DNA from: a virus
Taxonomy: Duplodnaviria; Heunggongvirae; Uroviricota; Caudoviricetes
Virus record (IMG/VR): IMGVR_UViG_2690316210_000007
Location: 1 to 35,809 of that record
Direction: 5' to 3' (one strand)
DNA: 35,809 bases
Of this stretch, positions 785 to 7,113 are shown one piece after another. Positions within the stretch are counted from its first letter, which is position 1, and each line of letters opens with the position of its first letter. The notes under the pieces are model-generated. The model saw only the letters and a list, made by a program, of their open reading frames with translations. It was not told the origin of the DNA and did no database searches. The position numbers and the translations under genes are program-made.

Positions 785-1834
785 ATGCTTAATACTGTAA
801 AAATATCCAGTTGTGAGTTAATCAACGCCGACTGCCTGGAATTTATCCGGTCGTTACCCGAAAATTCTGTTGACCTGATAGTCACGGACCCGCCGTACTT
901 TAAAGTGAAGCCTGAGGGCTGGGATAACCAGTGGAAGGGCGACGATGATTACCTGAAGTGGCTGGACCAGTGTCTGGCGCAGTTCTGGCGGGTGCTGAAA
1001 CCTGCCGGAAGTCTTTACCTGTTCTGTGGTCATCGCCTGGCATCTGATATCGAAATCATGATGCGTGAACGCTTCAGTGTGCTGAACCATATTATCTGGG
1101 CGAAGCCGTCCGGACGCTGGAACGGATGCAACAAGGAAAGCCTGCGGGCGTATTTCCCCGCCACAGAGCGCATTCTGTTCGCGGAACATTATCAGGGGCC
1201 GTATCGTCCGAAAGATGCCGGGTATGCGGCGAAGGGCAGTGCACTGAAACAGCATGTGATGGCCCCGCTGATTTCTTACTTTCGTGATGCGCGCGCGGCC
1301 CTGGGGATAACGGCAAAACAGATTGCAGATGCCACAGGAAAGAAAAACATGGTGTCGCACTGGTTCAGTGCCAGTCAGTGGCAGCTACCGAATGAAAGCG
1401 ATTATCTGAAATTACAGGCGCTGTTTGCCCGGGTGGCAGAAGAGAAGCATCGGCGTGGTGAACTGGAAAAGCTCCACCACCAGCTGGTGGATACGTATAC
1501 CTCACTGAACCGGCAGTATGCGGAGCTGCTGAGTGAATATAAACATCTGCGGCGGTATTTTGGCGTGACGGTGCAGGTGCCGTATACCGATGTGTGGACG
1601 CATAAACCGGTGCAGTTCTATCCCGGGAAACATCCGTGCGAAAAACCGGCAGAAATGCTGCAGCAGATAATCAGCGCAAGTAGCCGTCCTGGTGATCTGG
1701 TTGCGGATTTTTTCATGGGGTCGGGTTCAACGGTAAAAGCGGCGATGGCACTGGGGCGTCGTGCGATTGGTGTTGAGCTGGAGACCGGACGTTTTGAGCA
1801 GACAGTCAGGGAAGTTCAGGATTTAATCGTTTGA
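785..1834 (+). CDS. DNA amino-methyltransferase (N6-adenine or N4-cytosine), encoded in the late operon
   Basis: 349-aa ORF with DPPY motif IV near the N-terminus (DLIVTDPPYF) and an FxGxG AdoMet motif I near the C-terminus (DLVADFFMGSGST), i.e. beta-class motif order. Confidence 0.85.
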   Translation: MLNTVKISSCELINADCLEFIRSLPENSVDLIVTDPPYFKVKPEGWDNQWKGDDDYLKWLDQCLAQFWRVLKPAGSLYLFCGHRLASDIEIMMRERFSVLNHIIWAKPSGRWNGCNKESLRAYFPATERILFAEHYQGPYRPKDAGYAAKGSALKQHVMAPLISYFRDARAALGITAKQIADATGKKNMVSHWFSASQWQLPNESDYLKLQALFARVAEEKHRRGELEKLHHQLVDTYTSLNRQYAELLSEYKHLRRYFGVTVQVPYTDVWTHKPVQFYPGKHPCEKPAEMLQQIISASSRPGDLVADFFMGSGSTVKAAMALGRRAIGVELETGRFEQTVREVQDLIV

Positions 1835-1883
1835 AACGGATGAGATTGCAGAATTAATTACGCACCATTATTATTCTGCTCCC

Positions 1884-1959
1884 GGCCCTTTAGCTCAGTG
1901 GTGAGAGCGAGCGACTCATAATCGCCAGGTCGCTGGTTCAAATCCAGCAAGGGCCACCA
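1884..1959 (+). tRNA. ileZ: tRNA with CAT anticodon (tRNA-Ile2 lysidine type or tRNA-Met), 76 nt with encoded CCA
   Basis: Cloverleaf read by hand: acceptor GGCCCTT/AAGGGCC, D-stem GCTC/GAGC, anticodon loop CTCATAA (CAT), T-arm GCTGG-TTCAAAT-CCAGC, discriminator A plus CCA. Stx-type lambdoid phages carry ileZ-argN-argO here; the ileZ symbol is by analogy only. Confidence 0.85.
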
Positions 1960-2059
1960 TCACAAACCGCCATTAGCTTATCAGGAAGAGCAGACGACAC
2001 GATAACAGGGTTGTTGGTGCGGGGGCGGGTCCCCGATGGCGGTCCATTATCGGTATTCA

Positions 2060-2136
2060 GCGTTGTTAGCTCAGCCGGACAGAGCAATTGCCTTCTAAGC
2101 AATCGGTCACTGGTTCGAATCCAGTACAACGCGCCA
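2060..2136 (+). tRNA. tRNA-Arg (anticodon TCT), 77 nt with encoded CCA
   Basis: Acceptor GCGTTGT/ACAACGC, D-stem GCTC/GAGC, anticodon stem ATTGC/GCAAT with loop CTTCTAA (TCT), T-arm ACTGG-TTCGAAT-CCAGT, discriminator G plus CCA. Confidence 0.85.
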
Positions 2137-2150
2137 CACTTATTTTCCCT

Positions 2151-2177
2151 GGCTCGCTTTTGCGGGCTTTTTTTTAA
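2151..2177 (+). terminator. Intrinsic terminator downstream of the tRNA genes
   Basis: Hairpin gctcgc-tttt-gcgggc followed by a T8 run. Confidence 0.5.
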
Positions 2178-2181
2178 ATGT

Positions 2182-2398
2182 CTCACAATTCAGGCGGTTG
2201 ACTGTTGTCTGGTTTGCGGGGAGTTTGTTAAAAGAAACTGGCATGGTGAATCCCCCTGTGCGGAGGGGCAATCAGCGAGTAGGTATATGGGATAATCGCG
2301 GATTCAGGTGCTGGTACTGAATTCACCGGGAGGCACCCGGCACCATGCAATGGCACATAGCGCCACTCTCCAGCCCCTCTCCGGAGGGGCTTTTCTGT
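2182..2398 (+). repeat. Copy 1 of a ~220-bp hairpin-rich unit; candidate structured ncRNA/sRNA locus
   Basis: Begins CTCACAATTCAGG..TTGAC; contains gcatggtgaatccccctgtgcggaggggc, caccgggaggcacccggcaccatgc and a terminal hairpin cccctctccggagggg followed by CTTTTCT. The same architecture recurs at 2650-2886. Confidence 0.4.
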
Positions 2399-2585
2399 GC
2401 CGGATACATCACAGTTTCTGGAACCTTAGGTACTACAGTATCAGTCAGGGTGCTATATTTTCAGATGTGATGAAAGCCTGTCAGCAGGCAGGGCGTATCG
2501 GAAATGACCCAGTAGAGAAAACGTTGACTCAGATACCGGTGCTGAGTTACCGGGAAACCGGCATCACATGACCGCTATCCTTCCA

Positions 2586-2612
2586 GGCCCATCCGCTCCG
2601 GTGGGCCTTTTT
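2586..2612 (+). terminator. Intrinsic terminator-like hairpin between the two repeat units
   Basis: ggccca-tccgctccgg-tgggcc followed by TTTTT. Confidence 0.45.
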
Positions 2613-2649
2613 ACTGCAGAAAACAGGTTCCCCGTTAAATGCTATGTTG

Positions 2650-2886
2650 CTCACAATTCAGTAAGTTGACAGTTGCCTGTCAGACTGGGCATTTGTTAAA
2701 AAAATTTCGCATGGTGAATCCCCCTGAGCGGAGGGGCGACTGGTGACGGTATAATCTCTGATTATCAAAACGAGAATGACGCGGGTTTAGTGGCACCGGG
2801 CTGAACTCACCGGGAGGCACCCGGCACCATGTGCATGATGATACAGATACGCGGCTTTAGCCCCTCTCCGGAGGGGTTTTCTTGTG
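2650..2886 (+). repeat. Copy 2 of the hairpin-rich unit; candidate structured ncRNA/sRNA locus
   Basis: Begins CTCACAATTCAG..TTGACA; shares the 5' block (gcatggtgaatccccctgagcggaggggc) and 3' block (tcaccgggaggcacccggcaccatg ... cccctctccggagggg + TTTTCTT) with copy 1, with a different central segment that includes TATAAT. Confidence 0.4.
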
Positions 2887-3111
2887 GGCAAAAAAAGCCC
2901 GCGCTGGGAGACGCGGGCGGCAAGGAATAAACAATAAAACGTGAAGTAATATTTCAGCTGGCGAATAATACCCCATAGTAATCACTCTGCGCAACTGCGC
3001 GGTCTTTTTCGAATTGCGGGCTGTCGTCTCTCTTCTGCCATTGTCCTGTAACTTCCGGACTTCAGCCCGCTCCTTATTTTACTCACAATATTATCCCGGC
3101 CGGGAGGATTC

Positions 3112-4968
3112 ATGGCATTTAAACACTATGACGTGGTCAGGGCGGTATCGCCGTCAGACCTTGCGAAACGACTGACACAAAAACTGAAGGAGGGCTGGCA
3201 GCCGTTTGGTAGTCCGGTGGCCATAACCCCTTATACCCTGATGCAGGCGATTGCAGCAGAAGGTGATGTGGTGGTCAGTGGTGCAACTGAGCCGGATTGG
3301 TACTACGTCATCGTACTGGCCGGGCAGTCCAATGCCATGGCTTACGGTGAAGGGCTTCCGCTGCCGGATTCATACGATGCGCCCCATCCGCGCATTAAGC
3401 AACTGGCCCGTCGTAACACAGTGACTCCCGGTGGTGAAGTATGCGTATTTAACGACATCATTCCTGCTGACCATTGTCTGCATGATGTTCAGGATATGAG
3501 TACGATTAACCATCCCCGGGCTGACCTGAGCAAAGGGCAGTACGGCTGTGTCGGACAGGGCTTACATATTGCCAAAAAACTGCTTCCGTATATCCCTAAT
3601 AACGCGGGGATCCTGCTGGTACCATGCTGTCGTGGTGGTTCGGCATTCACCCAGGGCACGGAGGGGACATTCAGCGAGTCCACGGGGGCCAGTCAGGATT
3701 CGGCTCGCTGGGGAGTGGGTAAGCCGTTATATCAGGATCTGCTTTTCCGCACGAAGGCAGCATTGCAGAAAAACCCGAAAAACGTTTTGCTGGCGATATG
3801 CTGGATGCAGGGGGAATTCGATATGACGAATGCCAGTTACGCCCAGCAGCCAGCAGCATTTCTTGCAATGGTACAGCAGTTCCGTGCTGACCTTGCCGGG
3901 CTGGCGGCGCAGTGTCACGGTGGAAGTCCGGCATCAGTCCCCTGGATTTGTGGCGACACGACATACGCGTGGAAACAAGAACACGGTACGCAATATGAAG
4001 TGGTATATGGTGCATATAAAGGTAAAGAATCCCAGCAGATTTATTTTGTTCCCTTTATGACCGATGGTAGCGGAGTTAATACACCGACAAACAACCCGTC
4101 AGAAGATCCTGATATTGCCGGGTCTGGTTATTACGGTTCGGCATCCCGAACGAACAAAAACTGGGTATCATCAAATCGCCCGACGCATTTCAGCTCATGG
4201 GCGCGTCGTGGCATTATTCCCGATCGTATGGCAACTGCTATTCTGAACGTAGCCGGTCGCACCTTAGCCTTCATTAGTGGTAAGGCACCGGAAATCAAAC
4301 CCTCGCCCGGCGGCGACACTCCATCGGGGCCGTCTGATGGTGACACATCCGTTCGTACAGTCTCCCTGCTGCCGACAGCCGGAGAGGCTGCTGCGCAGGG
4401 CTGGACCATCACCGGCGGCAGTGTTGCGCTGGAAGATGGTGTGTTTAAGGTTACCAAGCAGAGCAATAAAACCTGGTCCCTGATGCATCCGGTGGATGAC
4501 GCAGTCTCCCTGCTGACACGGGGTGGCAGACTGAGCTGTAAGTTTCGACTGTCAGGCGCACTGACCAACAACCAGTTCGGTCTGGGAATTTATCTGTATA
4601 CCGATGTAGCGTTACCTGACGTCGTGGCGATGACCGGGACTGGTAACCCGTTCCTGATGTCGTTCTTCACCCAGACCACAGACGGCAAACTGAATCTGAT
4701 GCATCACAGGAAAGCAGGAAACACAAAGTTGGGCGAGTTCGGGAATTACAGTAACGACTGGCAGACGCTGGAGCTGGTGTTCACCGCCGGCAGTGCCACG
4801 GTTACTCCGAAACTGAATGGAGTGGCTGGCCCGGCATTCCAGGTCATAAAAGACAGTCTGACACTGGGGCTGAATGCGCTGACGCTGACGGATATTACCA
4901 AAAATGCAGCGTATGGCGTTGAGATAGAAAGTCTGGTGCTGGAGATAAATGCACCAGCATCATCATAA
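3112..4968 (+). CDS. nanS-p: Prophage sialate O-acetylesterase (nanS-p-like; SGNH/SASA-type esterase with C-terminal extension)
   Basis: 618-aa ORF with RBS ggagga before ATG 3112. Contains the GQSN esterase motif (VIVLAGQSNAMAYGEG). It sits between the tRNA/stx-equivalent region and the lysis cassette, as nanS-p homologues do in Stx and Stx-like prophages. Confidence 0.7.
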   Translation: MAFKHYDVVRAVSPSDLAKRLTQKLKEGWQPFGSPVAITPYTLMQAIAAEGDVVVSGATEPDWYYVIVLAGQSNAMAYGEGLPLPDSYDAPHPRIKQLARRNTVTPGGEVCVFNDIIPADHCLHDVQDMSTINHPRADLSKGQYGCVGQGLHIAKKLLPYIPNNAGILLVPCCRGGSAFTQGTEGTFSESTGASQDSARWGVGKPLYQDLLFRTKAALQKNPKNVLLAICWMQGEFDMTNASYAQQPAAFLAMVQQFRADLAGLAAQCHGGSPASVPWICGDTTYAWKQEHGTQYEVVYGAYKGKESQQIYFVPFMTDGSGVNTPTNNPSEDPDIAGSGYYGSASRTNKNWVSSNRPTHFSSWARRGIIPDRMATAILNVAGRTLAFISGKAPEIKPSPGGDTPSGPSDGDTSVRTVSLLPTAGEAAAQGWTITGGSVALEDGVFKVTKQSNKTWSLMHPVDDAVSLLTRGGRLSCKFRLSGALTNNQFGLGIYLYTDVALPDVVAMTGTGNPFLMSFFTQTTDGKLNLMHHRKAGNTKLGEFGNYSNDWQTLELVFTAGSATVTPKLNGVAGPAFQVIKDSLTLGLNALTLTDITKNAAYGVEIESLVLEINAPASS

Positions 4969-5708: not shown

Positions 5709-6242
5709 ATGAGCGCAAAAATCAAATACGGCCTGTCAGCTGCTGTTCTGGCGCTGATTGCTGCAGGCGCGTCTGCTCCTCAAATACTTGACCAGTTTCT
5801 GGATGAAAAAGAGGGTAACCACACTACGGCATACCGCGATGGTTCCGGTATATGGACCATCTGTCGTGGTGCCACAATGGTGGATGGTAAGCCCGTCATA
5901 CCGGGAATGAAGCTGTCGAAGGAAAAATGCGACCAGGTTAACGCTATTGAACGTGATAAGGCGCTGGCATGGGTGGAGCGCAATATTAAAGTACCACTGA
6001 CCGAACCACAGAAAGCGGGTATAGCGTCATTATGTCCCTATAACATTGGCCCCGGTAAGTGTTTCCCGTCGACGTTTTATAAGCGGCTGAATGCCGGTGA
6101 TCGTAAGGGCGCATGCGAGGCGATTCGCTGGTGGATAAAAGATGGTGGGCGCGATTGCCGCATACGTTCAAATAACTGCTATGGACAGGTTATTCGTCGT
6201 GACCAGGAAAGCGCATTAGCCTGTTGGGGGATAGATCAGTGA
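5709..6242 (+). CDS. R: SAR endolysin (T4-lysozyme-type muramidase, phage-21 R-like)
   Basis: N-terminal signal-anchor-release segment ([17 protein letters not shown]) followed by a catalytic E...D...T arrangement ([22 protein letters not shown]). Paired with a pinholin upstream, the canonical pinholin/SAR-endolysin system. Confidence 0.85.
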
Positions 6243-6697
6243 GCAGAGTCGCAGCGATTATTTATACTCTGGTTATCTGCACCATCGTCTGCCTGTCATG
6301 GGCTGTTAATCATTACCGCGATAACGCCATTACCTACAAAGCCCAGCGCGACAAAAATGCCAGAGAACTGAAGCTGGCGAACGTGGCAATTACTGACATG
6401 CAGATGCGTCAGCGTGATGTAGCAGAACTCGACGCCAGATACACAAAGGAGCTTGCTGATGCTAACGCGACTATCGAAAGTCTTCGTGCTGATGTTTCTG
6501 CTGGGCGTAAGCGCCTGCAAGTCGCCGCCACCTGTGCAAAGTCAACGACCGGAGCCAGCGGCATGGGCGATGGAGAAAGCCCAGGACTTACAGCAGATGC
6601 TGAACTCAATTATTACCGTCTCCGAAGTGGAATCGACAAGTTAACCGCTCAGGTCAACTACCTGCAGGAGTACATCAGGACGCAGTGCTTAAAATAA
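6239..6697 (+). CDS. Rz: Rz i-spanin
   Basis: GTG start overlapping the R stop (caGTGAgc). [61 protein letters not shown]... is near-identical to recalled lambda Rz ([61 protein letters not shown]...). Confidence 0.85.
6453..6644 (+). CDS. Rz1: Rz1 o-spanin lipoprotein, embedded in the +1 frame of Rz
   Basis: 63-aa ORF inside Rz with lipobox LLGVSAC and a proline-rich mature region ([16 protein letters not shown]), as in lambda Rz1. Confidence 0.75.
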
Positions 6698-6737
6698 TTT
6701 TAATTTCACTGAAATTTAATACGTGACTTTCAGGAAA

Positions 6738-6764
6738 ATGCCTCGCAGATGCGGGGCATTTTTG
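6738..6764 (+). terminator. Intrinsic terminator downstream of Rz/Rz1
   Basis: 9-bp stem atgcctcgc/gcggggcat (one G-U pair), loop agat, followed by TTTTT. Confidence 0.45.
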
Positions 6765-7113
6765 TACAGGTATTTCACCGCGCACCGCAGCGCACTCAAC
6801 CACGTCGAACCAAACCCTTTGGAATGAGCCTTTGAGTAGTCAGTTAGTGCTGGTGAGCCTTGACGGGCTGATCTCCTATGCAGCAAAGGTTCATCTCAAA
6901 GTAAGACGAACGCTATGACAAACCAAGATTCTATAGACCTATCTGATCTTCGTGGAATGGTCATTTTTCCAGACAAAAGGTAATCACCATAGTCGTATGG
7001 CTATGAATCTTGTTGCTGCAGATAAGCATTTTGTGATTGAAGTGGTCAAATCTCTCAAATGCAGTAAAATGCAGTGCGCTATAATTCAATAACGGAGGGA
7101 GTAAGGAGAAGTC

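Follow-up and report, generated by a model that had tools for sequence, protein, structure and literature searches.

Where Shiga-toxin phages carry stxAB, between the phage tRNA genes and a nanS-p-type esterase gene, the Caudoviricetes genome studied here (IMG/VR record IMGVR_UViG_2690316210_000007; the whole stretch of 35,809 nucleotides is referred to as the window) holds two related sequence units, and the question is what they encode. A first-pass annotation had proposed phage-encoded structured non-coding RNAs, which is borne out by an Rfam match and by covariation; the units lie in the "moron" slot of the late operon. Judged by their Rfam scores, units 1 and 2 are copies of a known small RNA (sRNA) family, STnc100 (Rfam RF02076).

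Layout and coding potential of the locus

The array is preceded by two plus-strand tRNA genes, both supported by ARAGORN, Rfam and the annotation of UTI89. An ileZ-type tRNA with anticodon CAT (1884–1959; Rfam tRNA model, 72.5 bits), whose equivalent in UTI89 is named tRNA-Ile in RefSeq, forms part of the upstream context, and an argO-type tRNA-Arg (UCU) at 2060–2136 is the last gene before the array. The terminator scan places an intrinsic terminator (GGCTCGCTTTTGCGGGCT plus T-run; 2151–2175, plus strand) 3′ of the tRNA genes; it is also annotated in 933W, upstream of stx. The downstream edge of the sRNA cluster is the esterase gene (3112–4968, plus strand), with DUF1737, SASA and DUF6645 domains. 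Identity of the window with UTI89 was rejected: the two agree exactly only over 2140–3110, the ungapped register is lost elsewhere, and nanS-p is intact in the window and truncated in UTI89.

Units 1 and 2 occupy 2182–2398 and 2650–2886, as first annotated, and are 81% identical over about 240–260 nt. Each starts with CTCACAATTCAG (at 2182 and 2650) and is closed by a terminator made up of the hairpin AGCCCCTCTCCGGAGGGG and a T-run (2372–2398 and 2859–2885). The 5′ block GCATGGTGAAT is present at 2241–2251 and 2709–2719, as are the partners suggested for it: CACCATGC at 2341–2348, its unit 2 version CACCATGT at 2825–2832, which produces a terminal G-U pair, and ATTCACC (2321–2327) and ACTCACC (2805–2811). 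A third CTCACAAT, first placed at 3080–3087, actually lies at 3082–3089 on the plus strand, 23 nt before the start codon of nanS-p, and is conserved in Sp4 and 933W. The number of CTCACAAT matches in the window is not significant (3 against 1.27 expected; 15 of 100 shuffles reach 3). This third motif is identical to the PasD target motif CUCACA, and no seed matching CUCACA was found in the region.

The initial statement that the region lacks a credible open reading frame (ORF) holds: no ORF overlapping 2137–3112 exceeds 94 amino acids, the longest being ones that extend over the tRNA genes. The RefSeq annotation over unit 1 consists only of a partial pseudo-CDS, labelled "hypothetical protein" and placed on the minus strand. 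This entry would fit decayed protein-coding remnants or chance repeats, and the first-pass annotation had itself named decay from a coding gene as an outcome that would overturn its proposal. The reading is refuted by the shortness of all ORFs, by covariation that preserves base pairing in the helices, by very high Rfam scores and by orthologues that are expressed sRNAs; we give it practically no credence, and a coding-remnant identity was rejected on the short ORFs and covarying helices.

Assignment to the STnc100 family

With the curated Rfam gathering score of 47 bits as cut-off for membership, the cmscan search against Rfam suggested by the first-pass annotation matched both units to RF02076 far above threshold, unit 1 at 136.3 bits (2212–2402) and unit 2 at 161 bits. 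STnc100 comprises sRNAs of lambda-like prophages that bind Hfq in pathogenic E. coli. We found the family in 2869 of 5426 complete E. coli genomes (about half), with a median of 2 and a maximum of 14 matching places per genome with a match; three tandem copies, as in the window, occur in 353 of the 5426 (~6.5%). Orthologues have been detected by Northern blots and RNA-seq in EDL933, Sakai and LT2; for EDL933, 11 copies are listed with RNA-seq read counts, one of them confirmed by Northern blot (PMC5331693). STnc100 has also been detected in outer-membrane vesicles, and SNPs in it were predictive of haemolytic uraemic syndrome in a machine-learning study. Reading of the raw sequence thus found genuine non-coding RNA genes, though of a family already catalogued, whose names include STnc100, EcOnc05 and EcOnc27. 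STnc100 adjoins stx2 in Shiga-toxin phages.

Unit 1 (plus strand) is the EcOnc05 allele. EcOnc05 is an Hfq-crosslinked sRNA of about 222 nt from prophage Sp4 of O157 Sakai (Tree et al., 2014), and alignment shows that Sp4 carries the unit 1 orthologue together with the corresponding downstream region. The Hfq-CRAC peaks of EcOnc05, EcOnc08 and EcOnc21 map onto the part of Sp4 that matches the window, and the reverse complement of the EcOnc05 probe is found exactly at 2270–2304. Counted from CTCACAAT through the last base of its T-run, unit 1 measures 217 nt, which fits the Northern species of ~222 nt; the same species compares with a CTCACAAT-to-terminator distance of 214 nt in Sp4, and one of ~235 nt with ~233 nt in 933W.

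Unit 2 (plus strand) scores 99.9 bits with a further model, R1, which is independent of Rfam, and alignment with 933W identifies its leader and core as the counterpart of EcOnc27/sRNA103 of Stx2 phages, with a terminator of the unit 1 type. In 933W the copy of the unit 2 type lies 34 nt after stx2B, holds the EcOnc27 probe target and is followed by the convergent AsxR gene. Hfq binding and the loss of a 247-nt EcOnc27 species in an hfq deletion strain have been reported (PMC4104026). The comparison with 933W qualifies the initial description of the locus as an stx-equivalent slot. Because 933W has stxAB after the tRNA terminator and before its unit-2-type copy, the stx position is taken by unit 1 and by the middle copy described below, whereas unit 2 normally follows stx2B.

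A divergent middle copy and a convergent sRNA gene

The 250-nt "spacer" that separates units 1 and 2 is itself a divergent STnc100 copy, the third of the array (2451–2615, plus strand). It scores 30.1 bits with RF02076, below the cut-off, and 28.4 bits with model R1 (E 1.6e-6), the next R1 match in the window having an E-value of at least 0.28. An extended -10 element (TGCTATATT, 2451–2459) precedes the copy's helix P1, formed by AUGUGAUG (2465–2472) and CAUCACAU (2562–2569) and compensated relative to units 1 and 2. P2 (2476–2489), a pseudoknot (2495–2501 with 2536–2542), P4 (2525–2532 with 2542–2549), a P5 hairpin of the form CCGG-GAAA-CCGG (2550–2561) and a terminator (2585–2615) complete it. 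A PasD identity of the middle copy or of unit 2 was rejected, since the seed UGUGAG is absent and P5 is present.

On the opposite strand, mapping of CRAC peaks, the terminator scan and folding together delimit a convergent sRNA gene at 2890–2994 (minus strand), a homologue of EcOnc08. Its -35 element is TTGCGC (2994–2989) and its -10 element TATTAT (2970–2965); the RNA body extends from 2964 to 2919 and the terminator from 2918 to 2890. The EcOnc08 Hfq-CRAC peak of Tree et al. maps onto 2892–2964 (minus strand), and the element resembles the EPEC RIL-seq sRNA E2348C_1409.E2348C_1408.IGR. Its terminator faces that of unit 2 (2859–2885, plus strand, against 2918–2890, minus strand), as in the convergent pairs defined by Tree et al. 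(2014). Together with the STnc100 array, the EcOnc08 homologue makes up such a pair, which those authors described for the moron site. Neither the middle copy nor the minus-strand gene had been noticed in the first-pass annotation, and the STnc100 identity had likewise been missed.

Promoters, linkers and terminators

A promoter-like block was read by eye in unit 1 (2198–2234, plus strand), with TTGACT at 2198–2203, TTGTCT at 2205–2210 and an extended -10 element TGTTAAAAG at 2226–2234; a simple consensus promoter scan did not report the unit promoters read in this way. Start sites were placed from Northern sizes and promoter-like sequence. The predicted start of unit 1, at about 2240, coincides with the first base of P1, and an EcOnc06 species of ~177 nt fits such an internal start. 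A similar promoter layout precedes PasD2, whose 5′ end, based on RNA-seq, is at P1.

Scan and folds show a single-stranded stretch followed by a Rho-independent terminator with U-tail in units 1 and 2. The variable linker of unit 1 (AAUGGCACAUAGCGCCACUCUCC, 2349–2371, plus strand) lies between core and terminator (2372–2398, plus strand), at the position of the PasD seed; that of unit 2 covers 2833–2858, ahead of the terminator at 2859–2885, and that of the middle copy 2570–2584. The EcOnc05 Hfq-CRAC peak in the Sp4 copy runs from the variable region into the terminator, which matches the linker stretch of unit 1.

Covariation and the pseudoknotted core

The covariance analysis suggested by the first-pass annotation covered a diverse set of 75 homologues that represent a dozen enterobacterial genera. 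It supported helices P1 and P4, and it did not support the alternative helix discussed below. The homologue set was gathered using GGGAGGCACCC, so that much of the apparent sequence invariance stems from the mode of collection. The overall covariation score was 0.298; shuffles gave 0.150 (0 of 500 reaching 0.298) and slid controls about 0.11. The proposed pairing of GCAUGGUG with CACCAUGC is genuine: it forms the long-range closing helix P1, in which both partners have changed in 6 of 8 pairs and 89.5% of cells of the 75-homologue alignment are paired. In P4, the downstream hairpin, such double-sided changes occur in all 7 of 7 pairs.

A pseudoknot that joins the loop of P4 to the segment following P2 is likewise supported by covariation. 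It was assessed in an alignment-free manner, comparing duplexes with a sequence's own loop to duplexes with the loops of other sequences: the mean energy was -8.6 kcal/mol for own loops and -4.2 kcal/mol for others (0 of 5000 permutations), and a contiguous helix of at least 6 bp formed in 81% of own pairings against 30% of the others, with 53 distinct helix sequences. Counted on the MAFFT alignment, just 43% of cells are paired, a low figure because indels misalign the strands. A word search of the most recent dedicated paper returned no mention of this pseudoknot.

In unit 1 the structured core (2241–2348, plus strand; covariation, pseudoknot test and minimum-free-energy fold) scores 98.2 bits with model R1 and consists of P1 (2241–2248 with 2341–2348), the P2 hairpin (2252–2268), the pseudoknot between 2271–2276 (AUCAGC) and 2310–2315 (GCUGGU) in the P4 loop, P4 (2300–2307 with 2317–2324) and the P5 hairpin (2326–2340). 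The corresponding elements of unit 2 are P1 at 2709–2716 and 2825–2832, P2 at 2720–2736, the pseudoknot between 2740–2745 (CUGGUG) and 2794–2799 (CACCGG), P4 at 2783–2790 and 2801–2808, and P5 at 2810–2824. Minimum-free-energy folds of both units use the helices supported by covariation, with a modest gain in stability over shuffles (z -1.8 and -2.1). By cmscan, covariation and minimum-free-energy folding, the nested STnc100 consensus is found here, with its closing long-range helix, internal hairpins and terminator. A CsrA-type GGA motif in the P2 loop was considered by eye (GCGGAGGGG, GCGGUGGGG, GCGGCGGGG) and rejected because the A of GGA varies.

A conformational switch is not supported

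The first-pass annotation had further proposed that the 5′ block takes part in mutually exclusive helices retained in both copies, so that GGUGAAU would alternate between AUUCACC and CACCAUGC in the manner of a riboswitch or attenuator. One half of this proposal is P1, with its 6 of 8 double-sided changes. The other half, GGUGAAU:AUUCACC, shows no covariation among the homologues (0.102 against 0.101 for shuffles, 112 of 500 shuffles pairing at least as many cells). All 7 of its pairs can form in only 12 of 75 homologues, pair 15–142 is broken in 55 of 75, and changes in the 5′ strand are compensated in the P1 partner alone. Moreover, its 3′ strand falls within P4, where all 7 pairs covary; the minimum-free-energy and centroid folds use P1; and the terminators of units 1 and 2 lie beyond both candidate helices and overlap neither. 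The two helices are not both conserved and covarying, as expected of a riboswitch or attenuator, and no known riboswitch or leader family matched in Rfam even at E≤1. Two points would speak for a switch, namely that both candidate 3′ partners flank P5 symmetrically and that 57 of 75 homologues keep the sequence for a 5-bp GGUGA:UCACC pairing. Given this conservation, the pairing may conceivably occur in a transient folding intermediate. As a conserved switch, the reading is largely refuted by covariation, and we regard it as very improbable.

A proposed mode of action and its rivals

The cluster follows Q/PR′ and the phage tRNAs and precedes nanS-p and the lysis genes. We consider it likely that it is a cluster of sRNA genes in the lambdoid "moron" slot, in which each unit forms an autonomous gene with a structured core, a seed-bearing linker and a terminator that binds Hfq. 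Each STnc100 gene has one or more putative promoters of its own, a core of ~110 nt that P1 closes and that holds P2, P4, P5 and the pseudoknot, a variable single-stranded linker and a Rho-independent terminator. In the lysogen, on the model of the EHEC, EPEC and Salmonella orthologues, each unit would be transcribed from its own promoter and stop at its own terminator; Hfq may bind the 3′ linker and terminator; the linker would pair in trans with host or prophage mRNAs, as proposed for PasD; and the pseudoknotted core could act as a stable scaffold. After induction, Q-modified RNA polymerase would pass all terminators into nanS-p and the lysis genes. For orthologues, others have demonstrated transcription, Hfq crosslinking, Hfq-dependent stability and RIL-seq target sets. 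Published targets within the group come only from PasD, by RIL-seq, and from sRNA103, by overexpression, and the effects on fimZ and espA reported for an STnc100 member likewise derive from overexpression.

Alternatively, the units might act mainly in cis. Their stacked terminators would block transcription from PR′, the tRNA promoter and the moron promoters in the lysogen, ahead of nanS-p and the lysis genes, and their structures would be processing or stability elements of the Q-antiterminated late transcript. The site is in keeping with this idea: in several other genera copies lie invariantly upstream of holin genes, and downstream of the Q gene in the one locus checked for it. Three plus-strand terminators within 700 nt add to the one after the tRNAs, and terminators are annotated in the corresponding stretch of 933W. 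A terminator role, however, needs no covarying pseudoknotted core of 110 nt, promoter-like elements were read by eye in each unit, and discrete Hfq-bound orthologue sRNAs were detected without any reported phage induction. In addition, a strict scan of 185 homologous copies found a terminator after 108 and none after 77, a scan which undercounts imperfect stems and from which we claim no terminator-less leader copies. Action mainly in cis hence appears unlikely.

A conserved pseudoknotted core in tandem or back-to-back repeats is unusual for a seed-pairing sRNA, and the base-pairing model may therefore be incomplete. The STnc100 core (P1, P2, the pseudoknot, P4 and usually P5) could be an autonomous functional module that binds a conserved partner from host or phage, be it a protein, another RNA or a small-molecule ligand, and serve for instance as decoy, sponge or sensor, linker pairing being secondary or absent. 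This is compatible with STnc100 membership and differs from the sRNA model only in mechanism. P1, P2, the pseudoknot and P4 are kept across at least 12 genera and also in the divergent PasD2 and middle copy, while linkers and terminators vary. Copies stand in tandem arrays of 3–5, on a Pantoea plasmid back-to-back cores are separated by about 10 nt that hold no terminator, and the exact P5 GGGAGGCACCC recurs in 29 of 36 co-located copies that lie outside the ascertainment. On the other hand, the core is not known to bind any such partner, the 3′ part is where Hfq crosslinks and RIL-seq chimeras of orthologues map, P5 is absent from PasD2 and altered in the middle copy, and the apparent invariance is largely a product of homologue collection. 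We thus put this forward as a tentative idea, somewhat doubtful on present evidence; if true, lambdoid prophages throughout the Enterobacterales would carry arrays of core modules, in tandem and sometimes back to back, in the leader of the late operon.

The present analysis adds a corrected structure with a covarying pseudoknot as an experimental handle. Further handles are P1 as the putative 5′ end of the short form, the variable 3′ linker as the likely seed, and tandem repetition across genera.

Comparison with known systems

The window units share with STnc100 (RF02076, listed as "Gammaproteobacterial sRNA STnc100") the nested helices, the site in the late region of prophages and the multi-copy habit. 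Units 1 and 2 span the whole model; the middle copy falls under the threshold (30.1 against 47 bits). The nested consensus line of RF02076 lacks the pseudoknot seen here, and the first ~29 positions of the model cover the apparent internal promoter of the window units. In EHEC, members of the family are named EcOnc05, EcOnc06, EcOnc27 and sRNA103 (Tree et al., 2014; Gruber and Sperandio, 2015). The probe target of EcOnc05 from O157 is contained in unit 1 without a mismatch. EcOnc27 (equal to sRNA103; 933W/Sp5) has leader and core in common with unit 2, but differs from it in 3′ linker and terminator, and its probe has no match in the window. The O157 phages have a convergent pair between moron slot and nanS-p-like ORF, as does the window; Sp4 and Sp5, however, hold one STnc100 copy each against three here, and the Stx2 phages carry stx, whereas the window is without stx genes.

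PasD1 and PasD2 of EPEC E2348/69 lie after Q, PasD2 directly upstream of a SASA esterase gene, like the window units (Pearl Mizrahi et al., 2021; Zhu, Shabalina and Storz, 2026). Both act as hubs that depend on Hfq and carry their seed in the 3′ linker (PMC8550237), and common ancestry of PasD and STnc100 was proposed by the PasD authors themselves. PasD2 is found by model R1 at 30.6 bits; P1 stands at the 5′ end of its RNA-seq coverage, and P2, a 7-bp pseudoknot, P4, linker and terminator are likewise present. PasD is, however, without the P5 hairpin that occurs in all three window copies, and the PasD seed UGUGAG has no counterpart (TGTGAG) within 1800–3200. The absence of UGUGAG and the presence of P5 therefore place the window units with STnc100 proper, not with PasD.

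AsxR and AgvB (RF02703 and RF02702) belong to a class of RNAs of 51–60 nt with a conserved 3′ region of ~42 nt. The first-pass annotation had judged the units not to be anti-sRNAs of this EHEC type, and rightly so: neither family matches within 1800–3200 at E≤1, while AsxR of 933W, as positive control, scores 88 bits. AsxR/AgvB identity of the plus-strand units was rejected on this lack of an Rfam match and on the opposite strand of AsxR in 933W, where these RNAs occupy the convergent minus-strand slot right after the STnc100 terminator. The element in that slot of the window (2890–2964) is of the EcOnc08 type and lacks the conserved ~42-nt 3′ region.

Type III antitoxins (ToxI) are phage-associated tandem repeat RNAs of ~36 nt that fold into pseudoknots. 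The window resembles them in its tandem, phage-associated pseudoknot units, a likeness that serves only as a lead for the idea of an autonomous core module. ToxI units measure ~36 nt against 120–250 nt here, most units here have their own terminators, and no ToxN-like gene follows the STnc100 copies, which are followed by an esterase or holin gene instead; the window units are not members of the ToxI class.

Identity of the two units

The two units on the plus strand (unit 1, 2182-2398; unit 2, 2650-2886) are members of the STnc100 family. The Rfam scan assigns the regions 2212-2402 of unit 1 and 2680-2889 of unit 2 to RF02076 (STnc100) with 136 and 161 bits, respectively (gathering score 47); every defining feature of the family that can be tested is present, and we regard this identity as nearly certain. 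The tested defining features of AsxR/AgvB and of PasD are missing from both units, which rules out either identity. As structured ncRNA genes the units are thus already known: the first-pass annotation correctly rediscovered from sequence an sRNA family that is common and medically adjacent, and for which a sharper structural model can now guide follow-up. Three results go beyond the claim of that annotation and may be new: the pseudoknot, the third copy, and the finding that tandem arrays are general.

The relation between the units and their ends were described correctly in that annotation: CTCACAATTCAG heads both (at 2182 and 2650; 81% identity), and a hairpin AGCCCCTCTCCGGAGGGG with a T-run closes each. 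The 5′ block GCATGGTGAAT occurs at 2241 and 2709 with both of its candidate partners present, the P1-type partner in unit 2 being corrected to CACCATGT. A third CTCACAAT does exist, its position being corrected to 3082-3089; the count of this motif in the window is not significant (3 versus 1.27 expected; 15/100 shuffles reach 3). The hexamer CUCACA, present at the head of both units (2182-2187, 2650-2655) and at 3082-3087, 25-30 nt 5′ of the nanS-p start codon, is the exact RIL-seq target motif of PasD (PasD seed UGUGAG). Since UGUGAG is absent from 1800-3200, pairing with CUCACA would need a PasD-type sRNA of another prophage. That the units are remnants of a coding gene appears practically negligible: as had been noted, 2137-3112 holds no credible ORF. 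The sole RefSeq annotation across this stretch is a partial pseudo-CDS.

Published 'STnc_100' qPCR primers match unit 1 exactly, and the EcOnc05 Northern probe (Tree et al. 2014 supplement, PMC4104026) is the exact reverse complement of 2270-2304. In Sakai prophage Sp4, argO and a nanS-p homologue flank a single unit-1-type copy, and 3′ of that copy lies a region nearly identical to 2880-3111 of the window. The probe and Sp4 matches from this supplement settle the tie of the window units to experimentally defined RNAs. In phage 933W, a unit-2-type copy that includes the target of the EcOnc27 probe begins 34 nt 3′ of stx2B, and AsxR follows it in convergent orientation. Measured from CTCACAAT through the end of the terminator, the Sp4 copy spans 214 nt and the 933W copy about 233 nt; the published Northern sizes are ~222 nt (EcOnc05) and ~235/247 nt (EcOnc27) (PMC4104026); the size of the ~177-nt EcOnc06 species is consistent with a start near P1, the long-range closing helix.

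The variants reported as HUS-predictive at +90 and +103 after stx2B (PMC12711010) map to the sequence TTTGTTAAAAAAATTTC, which immediately precedes P1 (about 2790-2807 in 933W, corresponding to about 2690-2708 of the window, a count perhaps off by 1-2 bases). This sequence, putatively an extended -10 plus leader, is not part of the structured core, and the variants could affect expression rather than pairing.

Conserved fold and pseudoknot

Two DNA patterns were used to gather homologues, which came from 42 loci in about a dozen enterobacterial genera and from 120 viral contigs; this set was thinned to 75 diverse cores. Thermodynamic folds of both units use P1, the core hairpins P2, P4 and P5, and the terminator. 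In pair counts on the alignment of the 75 homologues, 80.4% of cells in the nested helices are paired versus 71.3% in shuffles, and the covariation score is 0.298 versus 0.150 in shuffles (reached by 0/500) and about 0.10-0.12 in slid controls. Changes on both sides occur at 6/8 pairs of P1 and 7/7 of P4. The annotation had proposed mutually exclusive helices, and both partners of the 5′ block are indeed there; the covariation score of the alternative helix, however, is 0.102 versus 0.101 in shuffles. The inner pair of this helix is broken in 55/75 homologues, only 12/75 can form all 7 pairs, and where its 5′ strand changes, compensation is seen only in the P1 partner. We therefore consider a conformational switch very unlikely.

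The alignment first suggested a pseudoknot between the stretch directly 3′ of P2 and the P4 loop (AUCAGC/GCUGGU in unit 1, CUGGUG/CACCGG in unit 2). Because MAFFT misaligns these strands, pairing was tested without alignment: duplex energy with the own loop averages -8.6 kcal/mol versus -4.2 with loops of other sequences (0/5000 permutations), and an uninterrupted helix of 6 bp or longer forms in 81% of own pairings versus 30% of others, the helices comprising 53 distinct sequences. In PasD2 the pseudoknot measures 7 bp (AAUGAUC/GAUCAUU). The pseudoknot is absent from the nested consensus line printed by cmscan for RF02076, and the word itself from the 2026 Pas/STnc100 paper.

Middle copy, distribution and neighbours

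The stretch between the units, taken for a spacer in the first-pass annotation, is a divergent third STnc100-like copy (2451-2615, plus strand). Rfam scores it at 30 bits, under threshold; model R1, built from the 75 cores, which exclude this copy, gives 28.4 bits (E 1.6e-6), the next match anywhere in the window having E of at least 0.28. Compensatory change preserves P1 (AUGUGAUG/CAUCACAU); P2 and P4 are retained, as is the pseudoknot, and P5 carries a GAAA cap in place of AGGCA. An extended -10 element and a terminator of the copy's own also lie within 2451-2615. At the equivalent site between its two copies, phage PhiR5_2 matches too, but more weakly (18.3 bits, E 0.0011).

Across the 42 genomic loci, model R1 finds 78 copies, and across 100 viral loci it finds 136; arrays of three to five copies are common. 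On Pantoea sp. plasmid pAPP145_2 (reverse strand, 6008-7060), STnc100 cores stand back to back with gaps of ~10 nt, the first directly followed by a further core-like element; with no terminator in between, multi-core transcripts are implied. Holins lie downstream of copies in distant genera, and individual loci there have a Q antiterminator or PerC-type activator upstream. Many ExPEC genomes (UTI89, S88, IHE3034 and ATCC 11775 among them) match region 2140-3110 with 100% identity, and the region has a match in 2869/5426 complete E. coli genomes (median 2, maximum 14 places each), with most of the three-unit arrangement in only 353 of the 5426; phage-record matches are mostly Stx2-converting phages.

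The window opens inside the C-terminus of a Q antiterminator (PF03589), and the gene order from there is DNA methylase (785-1834), tRNAs, array and nanS-p esterase. A promoter-like stretch and a strong terminator (about 293-316) 3′ of Q are probably PR′ and tR′, and a 198-nt ORF (437-634) comes next, for which the equivalent UTI89 position has a hypothetical-protein annotation. The argN slot between two tRNA genes (1967-2046, plus strand) holds a decayed tRNA remnant uncalled by ARAGORN and Rfam; the argN gene from an Stx2a phage can be aligned with its acceptor half and its T-arm half, but its anticodon arm is scrambled. UTI89 has a RefSeq tRNA-Arg there, with differing sequence. nanS-p (3112-4968) is intact in the window (618 aa), whereas the UTI89 annotation lists it as a truncated pseudogene, so the window comes from a related, not identical, prophage, despite 100% identity over 2140-3110.

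Proposed function

Transcription of STnc100 orthologues has been shown, for one copy by Northern blot (PMC5331693), and sigma-70 occupies Salmonella copies (PMC10794520). Hfq crosslinks to orthologues, and the 247-nt EcOnc27 species is destabilised without Hfq (PMC4104026). PasD is an Hfq-dependent RIL-seq hub, and its seed lies in the linker that immediately precedes the terminator. By analogy, we consider it probable that every unit is an autonomous sRNA gene, that Hfq would bind the 3′ linker and terminator, that the variable linker (2349-2371, 2570-2584, 2833-2858) would be the seed on a stable scaffold core, and that Q-modified polymerase would read through after induction; trans-pairing itself we propose with moderate confidence.

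A core with a partner of its own, which does not exclude the model above, is the main rival and a possible, if clearly less likely, reading. GGGAGGCACCC in the P5 loop is part of both DNA patterns, so its invariance in the homologue set is partly built in; it is kept in 29/36 co-located copies not used for ascertainment. A purely cis role as insulator or processing element, to which the terminators and a Q gene upstream might point, seems improbable next to the Hfq data on orthologues.

Convergent minus-strand sRNA

Facing the plus-strand units is a minus-strand sRNA gene, an EcOnc08 homologue, at 2890-2994 with an extension to 3055. Its RNA of ~70 nt (2890-2964) is delimited by a promoter (TTGCGC and TATTAT, 18 nt apart) and a strong terminator; the EcOnc08 Hfq-CRAC peak (Tree et al., PMC4104026) maps to 2892-2964 and the EcOnc21 Hfq peak to 2970-3055. 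The published Northern size of ~271 nt points to a longer antisense RNA reaching the nanS-p start. This gene occupies the slot held by AsxR or AgvB in other prophages; its sequence differs from theirs, without a match to RF02702/RF02703, and closely resembles the EPEC RIL-seq sRNA E2348C_1409.E2348C_1408.IGR (seed CUUGCG). Tree et al. described "convergent sRNA pairs 3′ of PR′ in the moron insertion site"; with three plus-strand copies, the window holds a three-copy version of such a pair.
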